Counted from the first letter of the stretch, positions 12,880-62,193 are shown. The stretch is 64,000 bases of DNA from an uncultured Lachnospiraceae bacterium (GCA_910586015.1 CAJUGJ010000013.1:24578-88577), one strand, 5' to 3'. Notes: generated by a model from the sequence alone, not told the origin. Translations and numbers: made by a program.

Positions 12880-14736
12880 ATGCAGGAAGTGAAATCACCA
12901 AAAAAACCGATACTATATTATTACTTAATTGCATTTTTAGTTTTAATGATTTTAAATGCAGTGCTGTTTCCAAAATTGATGACAAAACGAGTAACAGAGG
13001 TAGATTATGGAACTTTTCTTTCTATGCTCGATTCAAATGAAATTGCACAAGTACAGATTGAAGAAAATCAGATTATTTTTTCAGATCGTCAAACGCCTAC
13101 AAATTATTATAAGACAGGCATCTTAAATGATCCAGCATTAGTAGATCGGCTGTATAAAGCAGGAGTTACTTCGTTTGGAACTCCAATTGTAGAAGAGATG
13201 TCACCATTACTGAGTTTTATTTTAACTTGGATTTTGCCAATCGTTATTATGGTAGTTGTTGGACAGCTTTTAATGCGAAGTATGACAAAAAGAATGGGCG
13301 GCATGGGAAATGCAATGTCGTTTGGAAAAAGTAATGCTAAAGTTTATGTGCAATCTACGAGTGGTATTAAGTTTGCAGATGTTGCCGGTGAAGATGAAGC
13401 AAAGGAAGTATTACAAGAAATTGTAGATTTCCTACACAATCCCCAAAAATATTCTGAAATTGGAGCAAAAATGCCAAAAGGTGCACTTTTAGTTGGTCCA
13501 CCCGGAACTGGAAAAACACTGCTTGCTAAAGCGGTTGCAGGGGAATCCAATGTTCCTTTCTTTTCAATTTCTGGTTCTGAATTTGTAGAGATGTTTGTTG
13601 GTATGGGTGCAGCGAAAGTTAGAGATCTGTTTCAGCAGGCGAATGAAAAAGCACCTTGTATTGTTTTTATTGATGAGATCGATACTATTGGAAAAAAGCG
13701 TGATGGCAGTGGAATGGCAGGAAATGATGAAAGAGAACAAACATTAAATCAACTTTTAACTGAGATGGACGGCTTTGATGGGACAAAAGGAGTTATTATT
13801 TTAGCTGCCTCGAATCGACCAGAATCATTAGATCCCGCACTGCTTCGTCCGGGAAGATTTGATCGTAGAGTTCCCGTAGAACTTCCAGATTTAATGGGAA
13901 GAGAAGCAATTTTAAAGGTACATGCAAAAGAAATTAAAATTAGTGATGGAGTAGATTTTTCTGTAATAGCCAGAGCAGCAGCAGGGGCGTCAGGAGCAGA
14001 ACTTGCCAATATGATCAATGAGGCGGCATTACGTGCTGTAAGAGACGGAAGAAAATTTGTGACACAGGCAGATTTAGAAGAGAGTGTGGAAGTAGTTATT
14101 GCAGGTTATCAAAAAAAGAATAAAGTGCTTTCGGATAAGGAAAAGCTAATTGTGGCATATCATGAAGTGGGACACGCTTTAGTTGCAGCATTACAGACTC
14201 ATTCTGCACCAGTGACAAAGATTACAATTATTCCAAGAACATCAGGAGCGTTAGGATATACCATGCAAGTAGAAGAAGGAGAACATAACCTGATGACAAA
14301 GGAAGAGATTGAAAATAAGATTGCCACACTGACAGGAGGAAGAGTAGCAGAAGAACTGATTTTTAATTCTATTACAACTGGAGCATCCAATGATATTGAA
14401 CAGGCAACTCGTCTTGCACGTTCTATGGTTACTAGATTTGGTATGAGTGAAGATTTTGGAATGGTAGCACTAGAAACAATAACAAATCAATATCTTGGAG
14501 GAGATACTTCCCTAGCCTGTTCAAATGAAACGGCTTCTTTGATCGATCAAAAAGTGGTTTCGTTAGTAAAGAAACAGTATGAAAAAGCAAAAGATCTGCT
14601 TGTAGAAAATAAAGCGAAATTACATGAACTTGCAAAACATTTATATGATCAGGAAACAATTACAGGTGAAGAATTTATGGAAATTCTTCAAAGAAAGCCT
14701 ATACCAGAAGCAATAGAGGAAAAGACAGAAGATTGA
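12880..14736 (+). CDS. ftsH: ATP-dependent zinc metalloprotease FtsH
   Basis: Two N-terminal TMs, AAA Walker [12 protein letters not shown], and HEVGHA zinc motif. Confidence 0.95.
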
Positions 14737-14827
14737 AATTTTTAGTCTACAAGTTTGTGTCTGTGCGACATTCACAAACTTGTTATATACAATATAAATA
14801 TAAAAGTCGCACAGAGATGAGGAAAAA
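14730..14827 (+). promoter_or_regulatory. Conserved intergenic element, copy A (interleaved inverted repeats ending at the mnmA SD)
   Basis: Arms A 14750-14759 / A' 14773-14782 and B 14760-14769 / B' 14806-14815. A near-identical copy lies at 61861-61953. Confidence 0.5.
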
Positions 14828-15913
14828 ATGGAAAGAGTAGTTGTAGGAATGTCTGGTGGCGTGGATTCTTCAGTGGCAGCATATTTATTAAAAGAAGCTG
14901 GATATGAGGTAATTGGAGTGACAATGCAGATTTGGCAGCAGGAAGATATGTTTTCCAAAGAAGAAAACGGAGGGTGTTGTGGATTAAGTGCAGTAGAGGA
15001 TGCGAGAAGGGTAGCAGAAAAATTAGAGATTCCTCATTATGTGATGAATTTTCGTACAGAGTTTCAAAGTAAAGTCATAGATTATTTTGCAACAGAATAC
15101 TACGCAGGCAGAACTCCCAATCCATGTATTGCCTGCAACCGCTTTGTAAAATGGGAGTCTTTACTTGAGCGATCACTTTCGATTGGAGCAGATTTTATTG
15201 CAACTGGTCACTATGCAAGGATTCAAAAACTTCCCAATCAAAGATATACACTACAAACTTCCATAACTGCAAAGAAAGATCAGACATATGCCCTTTATAA
15301 TCTGACACAAGAACAATTAAAACGAACAAAAATGCCAGTAGGAGATTATACAAAAGAAGAAATTCGTGAGATTGCTAAAAAATTAGAACTACCAGTGGCA
15401 AAAAAGCCAGACAGTCAAGAGATCTGTTTTGTTCCCGATCATGATTATGCTTTCTTTTTAGAAAGTTATACTAAAAAGAAAGCAGAACCAGGAAATTTTG
15501 TAGATCAAAATAATAAAGTTTTAGGAAAACATAAAGGAGTAATCCATTATACGGTTGGACAGAGGAAGGGACTGGGACTTGCTCTTGGTTATCCAACTTT
15601 TGTTGTAGAACTTCGACCAGATACAAAAGAAGTGGTTTTGGGAACAAATGAGGAACTTTTTGAAAGACATTTGATTTGTAATAATCTCAATCATATGGCA
15701 GTAGAAACGTTTCTTCCAGGACAAGAGTTTTTGGCAAAAATACGTTATAATCACGGTGGAGCACCATGTAAAATTTTAGAGGTTGGAAATGACTGGCTTC
15801 GATTAGAATTTTTAGAGCCACAAAGAGCAATTACTCCAGGTCAAGCAGTTGTCTTTTATGAAGGCGACTATGTGGCAGGAGGCGGAACAATTTTATCTCC
15901 TAAAAAGGGATAA
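14828..15913 (+). CDS. mnmA: tRNA 2-thiouridine(34) synthase MnmA
   Basis: VVGMSGGVDSSVAAYLL PP-loop and full-length MnmA similarity. Confidence 0.95.
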   Translation: MERVVVGMSGGVDSSVAAYLLKEAGYEVIGVTMQIWQQEDMFSKEENGGCCGLSAVEDARRVAEKLEIPHYVMNFRTEFQSKVIDYFATEYYAGRTPNPCIACNRFVKWESLLERSLSIGADFIATGHYARIQKLPNQRYTLQTSITAKKDQTYALYNLTQEQLKRTKMPVGDYTKEEIREIAKKLELPVAKKPDSQEICFVPDHDYAFFLESYTKKKAEPGNFVDQNNKVLGKHKGVIHYTVGQRKGLGLALGYPTFVVELRPDTKEVVLGTNEELFERHLICNNLNHMAVETFLPGQEFLAKIRYNHGGAPCKILEVGNDWLRLEFLEPQRAITPGQAVVFYEGDYVAGGGTILSPKKG

Positions 15914-42409: not shown

Positions 42410-43516
42410 ATGAATCATTTTTCGAGCTATGAGGATATGAAACGACAATTATTTTATTCAAAGCAAGAAGAAGGAACAGGAGATAGAGATACTGGATGTT
42501 ATGTTGGAGGTAAAGAAAGTGGAGTTATGACACCACAAAATGGGGTATCTCCAAGATCGGGTGGAGTACCAGTGACACCAATTGCACCAGAAGGATCGAT
42601 GCCAGTAGCACCTAGACCAGATGAAGATATGAGTCATATACCAACGACACCAATTGCGCCAGAAGGGTCAATGCCAGTAGCACCTGAACCAGATGAAGAT
42701 ATGAATCATATACCAGTGACACCAATTGCACCAGAAGGATCGATGCCAGTAGCACCTGGACCAGATGAAGATATGAGTCATATACCAACGACGCCAATTG
42801 CGCCAGAAGGGTCGATGCCAGTAGCACCTGGACCGGGAGTTACAATTTTACCACCAATTGTAATTAACTATGCAACTGTAAGAGTTTTTCATGCAGCATC
42901 TAATTTTGTTCCACTTCGTGTTACAATAGGAAATCGAACACTGACAAATGATCTAGCATTTGGAAAAGTTTCTGGCTATAGTAGAATTACAGATGGTTTT
43001 CGAATTGTAACTGTATATAGTACAGTATCCAATGAAGTATTACTTAGAGCAACACTTCCATTTACATCAGGGCAAAAGATAACACTTGCAATCATCAATA
43101 CTGCAAATGGACTAGAGATCGTAACAGTTTCAGATACTGCCTGCCGCAATATTATGAATAACAGAGGATGTCTTCGTGCAGCAAATCTGACATTTGACGA
43201 TGGACCATTTGATATTATTTTAAGTGATGGACGTATGGTCTTTTCGGATGTCCGTCAAAAAGAAGTAACCTCTTGGAAACAGGCAGTTCCAGGAGATTAT
43301 GAATTTTACATTATGGAAACGCCATATGGAGTAATGCCGATTGATACTATGGGACGGTTAGAAGAGATGCCATATATTACTCAGGGTAGATATGTAGATG
43401 CTTCGTATTTGTTGAATTTCTATGTTAGAGTCAATGCTAAAAATATGTATACTGCATATATTATCGGCGGATATTACTCTGTAATGCCGCTTCAGGTGGT
43501 TGTAATCGAAGATTAA
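42410..43516 (+). CDS. DUF4397 domain protein with N-terminal proline-rich tandem repeats
   Basis: The C-terminal half (ATVRVFHAASNFVPLRVTIGNRTL...GKVSGYSRITDGF) matches the DUF4397 pattern. The N-terminus carries 3.6 copies of a 24-aa repeat. Confidence 0.65.
   Translation: MNHFSSYEDMKRQLFYSKQEEGTGDRDTGCYVGGKESGVMTPQNGVSPRSGGVPVTPIAPEGSMPVAPRPDEDMSHIPTTPIAPEGSMPVAPEPDEDMNHIPVTPIAPEGSMPVAPGPDEDMSHIPTTPIAPEGSMPVAPGPGVTILPPIVINYATVRVFHAASNFVPLRVTIGNRTLTNDLAFGKVSGYSRITDGFRIVTVYSTVSNEVLLRATLPFTSGQKITLAIINTANGLEIVTVSDTACRNIMNNRGCLRAANLTFDDGPFDIILSDGRMVFSDVRQKEVTSWKQAVPGDYEFYIMETPYGVMPIDTMGRLEEMPYITQGRYVDASYLLNFYVRVNAKNMYTAYIIGGYYSVMPLQVVVIED
42575..42832 (+). repeat. In-frame 72-bp tandem repeat, ~3.6 copies (TPIAPEGSMPVAPxPDEDM[SN]HIP[TV])
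   Basis: Units at 42575-42646, 42647-42718 and 42719-42790, plus a partial unit at 42791-42832. Odd and even units share alternating synonymous variants. Confidence 0.9.
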
Positions 43517-43671: not shown

Positions 43672-43952
43672 ATGATTGGAATTAAACCAATGTTAAAATC
43701 AGAATCAATCATAATTCCTTCAACAATTATATTTACTATTATAATAAAAGAAACATTTGAGTACATAAAAAAATATAATGATTACAAAAGAAAAAAAAAA
43801 TTAGAAATACAATATTTTTAGCTATATATTATATCATATTTTTAATTGGAATAGTATATCAATTAACAAGGATAAAGAATCCATTCTATTATATATTGTT
43901 ATTTATTATCTTTCTTTGTGATGTAATTATATTTCTTGTATTAAAAAAATAG
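43672..43952 (+). pseudogene. Small 3-TM membrane protein gene interrupted by a frameshift at an A10 tract (paralog of 44067..44336)
   Basis: Frame 0 reads MIGIKPMLKSESIIIPSTIIFTIIIKETFEYIKKYNDYKRKKK and stops at 43819. The -1 frame continues IRNTIFLAIYYIIFLIGIVYQLTRIKNPFYYILLFIIFLCDVIIFLVLKK*. The A10 tract is at 43791-43800. Confidence 0.6.
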
Positions 43953-44066
43953 TAATATAATAATTAGGATAGTTTAGAAGAAATACGGTAATTATTTTGT
44001 GATCGGGAACCAAGAAAGCTTTAATTAATGAGTGGCAAGAAGCCTGTGCGGAAATGTGGGAAAAAT

Positions 44067-44336
44067 ATGATAGAATTAAGCAGAGTAAACATGGTTTCAA
44101 CGGTAATTTTCGTTGTTGTAATACGGCAGACCTTTGACTACATAAAAGGATTTCAGGATTATGAAAAAAAGCAAAAGATCCGGAATGGATTATTTTTAGC
44201 TAGTTTTTATATAACGCTTTTCATTGAGATGCTCTATCGAATGAAAAAGATAAATGATCCTTTCTATTATATATCTTTAGGTATTGTTTTTCTCTATGAT
44301 CTAACTGTTTTTATTATATTTGAAAAGATAAAATAA
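44067..44336 (+). CDS. Small (89 aa) 3-TM membrane protein, intact paralog
   Basis: MIELSRVNMVSTVIFVVVIRQTFDYIKGFQDYEKKQKIRNGLFLASFY...INDPFYYISLGIVFLYD aligns along its whole length with the frameshifted upstream copy. Confidence 0.5.
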   Translation: MIELSRVNMVSTVIFVVVIRQTFDYIKGFQDYEKKQKIRNGLFLASFYITLFIEMLYRMKKINDPFYYISLGIVFLYDLTVFIIFEKIK

Positions 44337-49882: not shown

Positions 49883-50980
49883 ATGACAAAAATTGATATT
49901 ATTTCTGGATTCTTAGGAGCAGGAAAAACAACATTAATTAGAAAACTATTACAGGAAGCATTTCAAGGTGAAAAACTGGTCTTAATTGAAAATGAATTTG
50001 GAGAAATAGGAATTGATGGAGGATTTTTAAAAGACGCAGGTGTAGAAATCAGAGAAATGAATTCTGGATGTATTTGTTGTTCTCTAGTGGGGGATTTTGG
50101 TACAGCATTACAGGAAGTATTAGAGAAATTTCAGCCAGATCGTGTTATTATTGAACCATCTGGAGTTGGAAAATTGTCCGATGTTATAAAAGCTGTGGAA
50201 GATGTGGCAACAAAAGTTTCTGTAACATTAAATTCATATACTGCGGTTGTAGATGTTAAAAAGTGCAAAATGTACATGAAGAATTTTGGAGAATTCTTTA
50301 ATAATCAGATTGAGAGTGCACAGACAATCATATTAAGTAGAACGCAAGATGCTAAGGAAGATAAACTAGAACAGTGTGTAAAAGAACTAAAGGAACATAA
50401 TAATCATGCAACAATTATTACAACTGCATGGTCAGAAATAAATGGTAGTCAGATTCTTTCCGCTATGGAAAAACAGGTTTCTTTGGAAAAAGATCTTATG
50501 GAAGAAGTTTGCCATAATCATGACCACGATCACGAAGAACATCATCACGACCATCACCATGAAGAAGACCATTGTGAATGTGGTGAGCATCATCACGATC
50601 ACGAAGGACATCACCACAACCATCATCATGAAGAAGATCATTGTGAATGTGGTGAACATCATCACGATCACGAAGGGCATCACCACCATCATCACCATGC
50701 CGATGAAGTTTTTACTAGTTGGGGCATAGAAACACCTCATAAGTATAATAAACAGGAATTAACAGATATTTTACAGACACTTTCAGAAACCGATCGATAT
50801 GGTATGATTTTACGTGCAAAAGGAATGGTTGCCTGTATAGATGGAACATGGTTATATTTTGATTTTGTTCCAGAAGAGTATGAAATTCGTGAAGGAGCGG
50901 CTGATGTTACAGGAAGACTTTGTGTAATTGGAAGCAAATTAAATGAGAGTGAAATTGCAAAATTGTTTCATGCAGTATAA
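49883..50980 (+). CDS. G3E-family (CobW/COG0523) metallochaperone GTPase with His/Cys-rich insert
   Basis: GFLGAGKTT P-loop and the GCICCS (CxCC) motif. A His-rich stretch of about 60 aa precedes the CobW_C domain. Confidence 0.85.
   Translation: MTKIDIISGFLGAGKTTLIRKLLQEAFQGEKLVLIENEFGEIGIDGGFLKDAGVEIREMNSGCICCSLVGDFGTALQEVLEKFQPDRVIIEPSGVGKLSDVIKAVEDVATKVSVTLNSYTAVVDVKKCKMYMKNFGEFFNNQIESAQTIILSRTQDAKEDKLEQCVKELKEHNNHATIITTAWSEINGSQILSAMEKQVSLEKDLMEEVCHNHDHDHEEHHHDHHHEEDHCECGEHHHDHEGHHHNHHHEEDHCECGEHHHDHEGHHHHHHHADEVFTSWGIETPHKYNKQELTDILQTLSETDRYGMILRAKGMVACIDGTWLYFDFVPEEYEIREGAADVTGRLCVIGSKLNESEIAKLFHAV
50558..50695 (+). repeat. In-frame 69-bp tandem duplication encoding HEEDHCECGEHHHDHEGHHH[NH]HH
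   Basis: Units 50558-50626 and 50627-50695 differ at only a few positions. Confidence 0.85.
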
Positions 50981-61796: not shown

Positions 61797-61860
61797 GATT
61801 TTACTTGAAAAGTGATGTAGTTTATGGTAAAATATCGAAAGCGTTGTTTTAGAAGGTATA

Positions 61861-61953
61861 AGATTGAAAATTAAAGTTTTTAATCTGCGAGTTTGTGTCT
61901 GTGCGACATCCACAAACTTGTTATAGATAAGTCGCACAGAAATGAGGAAAGAA
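61861..61953 (+). promoter_or_regulatory. Conserved intergenic element, copy B (interleaved inverted repeats ending at the secG SD)
   Basis: Arms A 61888-61897 / A' 61911-61920 and B 61898-61907 / B' 61931-61940. Near-identical to 14730-14827. Confidence 0.5.
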
Positions 61954-62193
61954 ATGGCAGCATTACGAGTGATTATAACAATACTGTATGTTCTTATCTG
62001 TGTAGCATTAGTAGTTGTAGTATTGATGCAGGAAGGAAACTCAGAAGGGTTATCTGGAGCAATCAATGGAGTTGCAGATACTTATTGGGGCAAGAATAAA
62101 GGACGTTCTATGGAAGGAACTTTAATGAAGGCAACCAAAATATTAGCAGCTTTATTTATTGTATTTTCAGTGGTTTTAAATTTAGGCTGGTAA
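61954..62193 (+). CDS. secG: Preprotein translocase subunit SecG
   Basis: MAALRVIITILYVLICVALVVVVLMQEGNSEGLSGA... is a typical SecG. ATG 61954 follows GAGGAAAG (an in-frame ATG at 61942 lies inside the SD). Confidence 0.85.
   Translation: MAALRVIITILYVLICVALVVVVLMQEGNSEGLSGAINGVADTYWGKNKGRSMEGTLMKATKILAALFIVFSVVLNLGW

Follow-up and report, generated by a model that had tools for sequence, protein, structure and literature searches.

The stretch analysed here, called the window throughout, comprises 64,000 nucleotides of DNA from an uncultured Lachnospiraceae bacterium, and it carries two strong copies of a structured repeat, one before secG (copy B, the subject of this report) and one before mnmA (copy A). 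The window proteins FtsH, MnmA, GpmI, SecG and RNase R were all confirmed by Pfam. Copy B and its surroundings consist of the following features, all on the + strand:

61805-61833, +, promoter-like site of the sigma-70 type for secG (TTGAAA-17-TGgTAAAAT, 10/12 matches plus the TG of an extended -10)
61851-61856, +, relic of the native secG Shine-Dalgarno sequence (AGAAGG in the window, AGGAGG in relatives), cut off from the ATG by the insertion
61860-61953, +, copy B as a whole, about 90 nt inserted after the native spacer and before the secG ATG (covariance model score 64.9 bits, E=2.7e-12)
61861-61886, +, predicted hairpin P0 of copy B, AU-rich, 11 bp (61861-61871/61876-61886) with the loop UAAA
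61888-61897, +, A, the 5' strand of helix A:A', CGAGTTTGTG
61898-61907, +, B, the 5' strand of helix B:B', TCTGTGCGAC, within the loop of A:A'
61911-61920, +, A', the 3' strand of helix A:A', CACAAACTTG
61921-61930, +, AU-rich linker, 10 nt in copy B vs 23 nt in copy A
61931-61940, +, B', the 3' strand of helix B:B', GTCGCACAGA
61944-61951, +, Shine-Dalgarno sequence of the element, GAGGAAAG, ending 2 nt short of the secG ATG (61954)
61954-62193, +, secG coding sequence served by copy B (Pfam PF03840, E=1.5e-22)

Direct reading of the sequence gave the same stem coordinates and the same architecture as the preliminary description of this locus, with a proximal stem of AGATT (61861-61865) and AATCT (61882-61886). 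The P0 hairpin has a dG of -8.1 kcal/mol and encloses a TTG at 61864-61866, while helix A:A' is made of 10 bp including one G-U and helix B:B' of 10 perfect pairs. The left edge of copy B is ambiguous by approximately 3-6 nt, because AAG is common to the flank and the element. At the other end, the Shine-Dalgarno sequence GAGGAAAG is mostly single-stranded by prediction, with a mean unpaired probability of 0.58 for 61941-61953.

The strong promoter-like site at 61805-61833, which the preliminary description does not mention, lies between gpmI and copy B and is kept in relatives without the element; in one of these (L050) the alignment gives the equivalent secG promoter as TTGAAT-17-TGGTAAAAT. 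Since this conserved promoter sits between gpmI and copy B, the copy is most simply regarded as a part of the secG 5' UTR. Terminator-like sites were detected neither in the gpmI-secG nor in the ftsH-mnmA spacer, in agreement with the earlier description, which had proposed an intercistronic module for processing or translation control on polycistronic RNA. Since the gene uses a Shine-Dalgarno sequence that comes from the element, a role in translation initiation is reasonable, but the processing part of that proposal is weak for copy B, given the promoter between gpmI and the element. The P0 hairpin was also considered as a terminator and rejected, because it has no U-tract.

Two further observations concern this spacer. 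Just 8 nt separate the gpmI stop codon from the -35 box of the secG promoter in the window (61797-61804), with no terminator there, while the relative L050 carries a terminator-like hairpin, GGCGTGTCTGTTTTAAAGACACGTTGTTTTT, after gpmI (L050:2295-2365). An in-frame ATG at 61942-61944, 12 nt upstream of the secG start and within the element tail AAATGAGG, is chosen by some gene callers and gives a product of 83 residues (P0001); it is unlikely to be the real secG start because it reads ACG in the metagenome-assembled genome (MAG) L016.

The second copy that had been described, before mnmA, does exist, and a third locus in the window shows a weaker resemblance:

14729-14827, +, copy A as a whole, before the mnmA ATG at 14828 (covariance model score 59.7 bits)
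14730-14748 (P0), 14750-59 (A), 14760-69 (B), 14773-82 (A'), 14806-15 (B') and 14819-22 (Shine-Dalgarno sequence GAGG), +, parts of copy A
44040-44069 (or 44027-44069), +, candidate 3' remnant of a third copy, gccTGTGCGGAAATGTGGGAAAAATATG (covariance model score 21.4 bits, E=0.023; weak evidence)

The ftsH stop codon (TGA, 14734-36) falls within the 5' arm of P0 in copy A. Copies A and B are set apart by an indel of 7 nt around the P0 loop, another of 13 nt in the linker, and a small number of substitutions. As had been pointed out, both substitutions that fall in stems are G-U-compatible, and the distance from B' to the ATG is conserved (13 nt before secG vs 12 nt before mnmA). On the + strand the folding energy is -25.8 kcal/mol for copy B (z=-2.9) and -24.3 kcal/mol for copy A (z=-3.3); the best promoter-like match of copy A reaches 9/12. 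A core of 33 nt occurs twice in the window against an expectation of 0, and interleaved pairs of 10-bp stems are found at these two loci alone. However, such pairs also appeared in 5/60 locally shuffled windows, so one instance of interleaved stems is only mildly unusual, and the main weight of evidence is in the homologous copies elsewhere. The third locus, gccTGTGCGGAAATGTGGGAAAAATATG, resembles a tail of B', Shine-Dalgarno sequence and ATG of the type described below for Gallintestinimicrobium propionicum and contig L095, and leads straight into a small membrane-protein ORF with its ATG at 44067; from this likeness it may be a truncated third copy. That ORF belongs to a pair of paralogous small membrane-protein genes (43672-43948 and 44067-44336; repeat D2, 71% identical), the first of which is truncated or frameshifted by appearance.

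The secG upstream region is identical in 10 same-species contigs, and copy A is likewise identical in 10 same-species contigs. Among the secG loci compared, copy B is limited to the window species and to one close MAG of an uncultured Lachnospiraceae bacterium (L016), whose orthologous copy differs at 3 positions, including an A at position 2 of strand A. Comparison of orthologous upstream regions spoke against wider conservation in place, as the nearest relatives are without the element at both secG and mnmA. The nearest SecG relatives (87, 85 and 82% identity) keep the gene order tpi-gpmI-secG-rnr and lack the element; in L050, L053 and L054 the site reads AGGAGGTGT..ATG, and the alignment opens a clean gap of 90 nt opposite copy B. 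After the Shine-Dalgarno sequence, the SecG relatives read AGGAGGTGTAAGG/ATG (the slash marks a junction), while the window reads AGAAGGTATAAG/ATTGAAAA...GAAAGAA/ATG, with the upstream Shine-Dalgarno sequence decayed. As judged from this alignment, copy B is a clean lineage-specific insertion of 90 nt.

At mnmA, the element is absent upstream of the gene in MnmA relatives at 73-83% identity, and the nearest of them carry ftsH, a CmpB-like gene and mnmA in this order. The CmpB-like gene (PF06541, about 308-320 residues) is seen between ftsH and mnmA in the relatives L056 (1541-2500), L068 and L069; the window lineage has lost it, and copy A occupies the entire ftsH-mnmA spacer (14737-14827) and overlaps the ftsH stop.

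The wider family was found by a sensitive blastn search of copy B against a phage collection, which returned nine records from human faeces labelled "UNVERIFIED Bacteriophage sp."; a search with the consensus then located 21 places in 18 GenBank records, with identities of 91-98% among themselves and of 75-87% to the window copy. At least 19 of the related copies lie in Gallintestinimicrobium propionicum DNA: of eight downstream proteins, seven match Gallintestinimicrobium proteins (mostly those of G. propionicum) exactly, among them DnaB, thioredoxin, PncB, an M42 peptidase, an RlmI-like methyltransferase and an ABC-transporter binding protein. The concern that the two window copies might be the only instances anywhere is thus removed by many further ones. 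Full copies are without exception sense-oriented and abut the ATG of a real ORF, a different gene each time (dnaB, trx, pncB, ecfA and others); full copies start with AAGATTGAAAAAT and finish with ...CAGAAATGAG(N)GGAAAA(N), followed by ATG, and the length of the element ranges from 94 to 105 nt. Copies that do not adjoin an ATG may exist beyond those found. The IMG/VR contig L095 holds a third variant, in which P0 is absent and B:B' is perfect but different in sequence; P0 is absent from L087 as well. A conserved gene-specific cis-regulator of secG and mnmA was considered and rejected, as the element is absent in relatives and its related copies precede unrelated genes.

Scans with exact patterns added little. 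The B..B' pattern gave 37 hits in genome contigs, which is about the chance level and includes L016 as the sole real one; the B-loop-A' pattern gave 2 chance hits, both within coding sequences, in metagenome contigs; and the scans of viral contigs returned L095 and L096, the rest being chance hits. The element was not found in the plasmid collection. Against Rfam 15, riboswitches and small ribozymes included, neither the window nor nine G. propionicum loci gave a match at the gathering threshold, and the best sub-threshold E-values (0.23-0.43) were to unrelated families. In the literature, no Lachnospiraceae repeat of this type was found described.

The ends of the element were compared in several ways. 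Terminal inverted repeats were not seen, the similarity of one end to the reverse complement of the other being that of shuffled controls. A target-site duplication was rejected: the right ends of L081b, L077 and L089 resemble their own left flanks, but overall there is no excess (similarity of flank and right end 6.78 within a locus vs 6.42 across loci), and none is present at the empty and filled sites. No promoter or terminator was found within the G. propionicum copy, where a TTGACA considered as a promoter was rejected because it has no -10 partner. Among unique left flanks, a Shine-Dalgarno-like 4-mer stands 4-18 nt before the element's TTG in 13/19 copies, against a background of 13% (P=4e-8), and is taken as what is left of the native Shine-Dalgarno sequence.

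A second pair of empty and filled sites is found at dnaB. Between rplI and dnaB, the sites of L104 and L106 (DnaB 92% and 89% identical) are empty and read TAAAGGATACGAAAAG/ATG (L104) and ...GGAAACGGAAG/ATG, while those of G. propionicum (L073) and of a 95% relative (L101) are filled; in L101 the relic Shine-Dalgarno sequence is deleted. Two independent loci, secG and dnaB, therefore place the insertion directly 5' of the ATG. The two empty sites at dnaB are AAG/ATG and the nearest secG empty site (L050) is AGG/ATG, to be compared with AAG/ATTG at the left junction of the element, and this likeness of the junctions suggests a target preference or microhomology. The orthologous dnaB copies in L073 and L101 are identical at 101/102 positions, but this is not proof of selection, because the adjoining 3' end of rplI is equally conserved (98% identical).

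The fold was examined with a covariance model built on P0 and A:A', to which 23 copies from three lineages were aligned. In this alignment 92.5% of cells are paired vs 26-56% in controls with slid partners, and 0/500 shuffles reach the observed values; helix B:B', which was left out of the alignment fitting, is paired in 90% of cells and has 3 pairs altered on both sides. Pair types were counted from an anchor-based table, independent of the alignment, plus a direct reading of L095. Helix A:A' has 208 Watson-Crick, 9 G-U and 2 A-C pairs. For B:B' the raw totals over ten positions are 174 Watson-Crick, 30 G-U, 17 A-C and 9 other pairs, and our tally of positions 1-9, with two mis-extracted rows removed, is about 30 G-U vs about 1 A-C. 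The positions that vary between lineages are as follows:

B:B' position 5: U-A in the window, C-G or U-G in G. propionicum, C-G in L095
B:B' position 8: G-C in the window, G-U in G. propionicum, G-C in L095
B:B' position 9: A-U in the window, C-G in G. propionicum, G-C in L095
A:A' position 2: G-C in most G. propionicum copies
A:A' position 2: G-U in copy B and in the G. propionicum dnaB and ACT copies
A:A' position 2: A-U in copy A, L016 and L095

Since G-U pairs far outnumber A-C pairs, the fold is placed on the sense strand. The preliminary description had argued for pairing of RNA on the + strand from two differences only; the covariation in 23 copies and three lineages now backs it, and the further copies keep the G-U-compatible pattern. 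It must be noted that most of the covariation reflects three lineages and a handful of events, because the G. propionicum copies are 91-98% identical. RNAalifold predicted P0 and B:B' independently, and P0 has one clear compensatory variant, GCUUG paired with CAAGC, found in the ecfA copy of G. propionicum. The linker gives way in G. propionicum and L095 to a small 3' hairpin, CAUGCGC-AAAAA-GCGUG, which has one compensatory pair and overlaps B'; the G. propionicum copies also carry a bulged A.

Strands A and B are contiguous, with zero nucleotides between them, and therefore the full 10+10 bp cannot form together. Two readings fit the models, a pseudoknot in which B:B' would be reduced to about 7-8 bp, or a two-state switch, and they are indistinguishable here. 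When A:A' or B:B' is enforced, the computed energies are 1.4-4.2 kcal/mol apart in all lineages, and the predicted unpaired probability of the element's Shine-Dalgarno sequence is 0.58-0.89.

Our main reading, to which we give a probability of roughly 0.55, is that copy B is a member of a dispersed, sense-oriented repeat family in gut Lachnospiraceae, each member being a portable translation-initiation leader. The alignments of empty and filled sites show the element occupying the slot between the native Shine-Dalgarno sequence with its spacer and the ATG, its own 3' Shine-Dalgarno sequence standing at normal spacing from the adjoining ATG, and the native one stranded upstream, where it has decayed or been lost by deletion. 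The covariation likewise shows, at the level of sequence, that pairing in P0, A:A' and B:B' has been preserved on the sense strand, through changes that are compensatory or G-U-compatible. What the fold does is our inference. The transcript would fold into P0 and either an H-type pseudoknot (the loop of A:A' with B') or two near-isoenergetic alternative hairpins; this compact fold would leave the element's Shine-Dalgarno sequence single-stranded and so insulate the new ribosome-binding site. P0 would bury the TTG that now stands at the old start-codon position, by which the old ribosome-binding site would be silenced, and essential genes such as secG and dnaB would thus still be translated, from the ribosome-binding site of the element. 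The blocks UUUGUGUCUG, CACAAACU and CAGAAAUGAG, invariant across lineages, could be recognised by a shared trans-acting factor or by a propagation machinery. Spread may be site-specific or driven by microhomology.

To hypothesize further, the family could represent small mobile elements of a class not described before, with translation start sites as their target. Such an element would land in front of housekeeping genes, in sense and exactly between Shine-Dalgarno sequence and ATG, and put its own ribosome-binding site in place of the native one; its fold, a pseudoknot in the RNA (or a fold of the sense strand), would be required for its propagation or for a post-transcriptional control shared by dozens of genes in gut Lachnospiraceae. 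We regard this extended reading as possible, although the odds are clearly against it.

Two alternatives to the portable leader survive about equally well, and we consider each of them unlikely. The first is that the element moves as DNA, with the hairpins serving transposition (as in a non-autonomous derivative of IS200/IS605 or of REP/RAYT) and the RNA fold being incidental. The 91-98% similarity of copies within a genome, the precise insertion without target duplication, the conserved AAG motif at the left junction and the breaking of assemblies at the repeat would all suit such an element, and the strand asymmetry could equally mean single-stranded DNA of the top strand. However, the hairpins of the two ends are unrelated in sequence and terminal inverted repeats are lacking, and such an element would not explain why each of the 22 copies has the sense orientation and touches an ATG; to our knowledge, a single-strand transposon has no means of recognising sense orientation or an ATG. 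Covariation that tolerates G-T, together with a Shine-Dalgarno sequence at fixed spacing, fits a transcript better. A MITE was rejected as well, for having neither terminal inverted repeats nor a target-site duplication.

The second is a regulon tag, in which a trans-acting protein or small RNA would bind the invariant loops and co-regulate the tagged genes, as proposed for the Neisseria REP2/CREN repeats. That precedent (PMC3184786) and the blocks kept across three lineages beyond the needs of pairing are consistent with it. Against it, the tagged genes (secG, mnmA, dnaB, trx, pncB, ecfA, M42 peptidase) have no common theme, the tagged loci differ between species, and no candidate factor is known.

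Less probable again is a leader-peptide attenuator of the erm type, where the relic Shine-Dalgarno sequence would drive an ORF from the TTG, and the position of the ribosome would pick A:A' or B:B' and so set downstream initiation. It would draw on the Shine-Dalgarno-like flanks at a suitable distance from the TTG, on the two mutually exclusive helices of nearly equal energy, on the TTG ORF of copy B and L016 (20 residues, with a stop in the linker before B'), and on the pairing of UUUGU with AUGAG beside the Shine-Dalgarno sequence in the B:B' state. This idea fails because the ORF is not conserved: its frame and length vary (closed ORFs of 8 to 85 codons), three copies lack a stop over the 300 nt read, and the TTG itself is missing from six, some of them partial or degenerate copies. 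Moreover, L101 has lost the relic Shine-Dalgarno sequence and the window has a weakened one, the TTG is sequestered by P0, and the Shine-Dalgarno sequence downstream is for the most part free in either state (unpaired probability 0.58-0.89) instead of sequestered.

Hardly credible at all is a private segmental duplication, in which the ftsH-mnmA spacer was copied once before secG with no wider family or function: the window does hold only two strong copies, the exact-pattern scans of genome and metagenome collections gave just the orthologous copy in L016 and relatives are without the element at both loci, but at least 19 G. propionicum copies and L095 share the architecture, each before a different gene, an independent empty and filled pair exists at dnaB, compensatory changes distinguish the lineages, and contamination from the window species does not account for the other copies, since flanking genes and GC content differ in the G. 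propionicum and L095 sequences.

The closest known kind of repeat is that of Neisseria REP2/CREN, which carries a ribosome-binding site; the likeness is one of kind and not of a homology family. REP2/CREN and a similar IR on Borrelia plasmids are dispersed repeats of about 100-150 bp without terminal inverted repeats (Delihas 2011, PMC3184786). They have internal inverted repeats predicted to fold in RNA, bring a ribosome-binding site, are placed just before ORFs and contribute the 5' UTR, and their route of proliferation is unknown; REP2 also carries a promoter and has two separate stem-loops (PMC3184786). The Lachnospiraceae repeat is likewise multi-copy and dispersed (94-105 nt) and free of terminal inverted repeats, it has internal inverted repeats (P0, A:A' and B:B') that covary on the sense strand, and each of its copies has GAG(N)GGAAA.. 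at the end, with the ATG of a real ORF coming next. Unlike REP2, the G. propionicum copy has no promoter and copy B lies downstream of a host promoter, the helices are interleaved (pseudoknot or switch) and covary, and comparison of empty with filled sites locates the insertion between native Shine-Dalgarno sequence and ATG. The host phylum is also different, and sequence homology is not expected.

Other systems share single traits with the family. The MIRU of mycobacteria are short, operon-oriented intercistronic repeats that touch the upstream stop and downstream start codons; they are defined by small ORFs for translation coupling and often form tandem arrays. Copy A is alike in containing the ftsH stop and abutting the mnmA ATG, whereas the internal ORF of the Lachnospiraceae repeat is not conserved, its copies are single and many stand in 5' UTRs. 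BOX of Streptococcus pneumoniae and the enterobacterial ERIC are modular, transcribed and structured intergenic repeats with no known transposase, found in both orientations, not tied to start codons and not supplying the Shine-Dalgarno sequence of a gene. The Lachnospiraceae repeat is modular too (P0 is missing in L095 and L087), but it is sense-only, flush with the start codon and does supply the Shine-Dalgarno sequence. The pseudoknotted operators of E. coli rpsO and phage T4 gene 32 lie 5' of the Shine-Dalgarno sequence, are single-copy and gene-specific and are bound by the gene's own product. They are similar in that a hairpin loop pairs with a downstream segment just upstream of the ribosome-binding site, while the Lachnospiraceae repeat is multi-copy before unrelated genes and has no known ligand.

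Very few bacteria (Neisseria with REP2, Borrelia with IR) are known to have repeats that are fused to start codons and carry a ribosome-binding site, and how these repeats originate and spread is an open question, which the Lachnospiraceae family makes testable. This family is abundant in a common human gut genus, and it gives clean empty and filled sites at essential genes together with covariation that points to a functional fold of the sense strand. It also indicates that the translation-initiation regions of core genes (secG, dnaB) can be swapped wholesale for a leader borne by a repeat.

There are practical consequences as well. The element breaks metagenome assemblies: contigs L102 (1-41) and L103 (1-41) begin within it, and scaffolds L045 and L047 have runs of N upstream of secG, that of L047 being inside the element. 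Breaks at or near the element are as expected of a repeat, which seems to break short-read assemblies, and this may be the reason why the mnmA copy is unseen in the L016 genome. The GenBank records MT836138-MT839492 (loci L071-L090), from Mexican human faecal samples, are wrongly labelled "UNVERIFIED: Bacteriophage sp."; they are fragments of Gallintestinimicrobium chromosomal DNA, bacterial and not phage, because they encode exact Gallintestinimicrobium housekeeping proteins.

Elsewhere in the window, repeats of another sort lie within coding sequences. Three tandem repeats with a 72-nt period (42567-42834, 89-97% identical) are found in the ORF at 42410-43516 and encode the recurring motif PIAPEGSMPVAP.PDEDM.HIP, and three tandem 69-nt repeats (50519-50725) in the ORF at 49883-50980 encode a histidine-rich stretch, HDHDHEEHHHDHHHEEDH....
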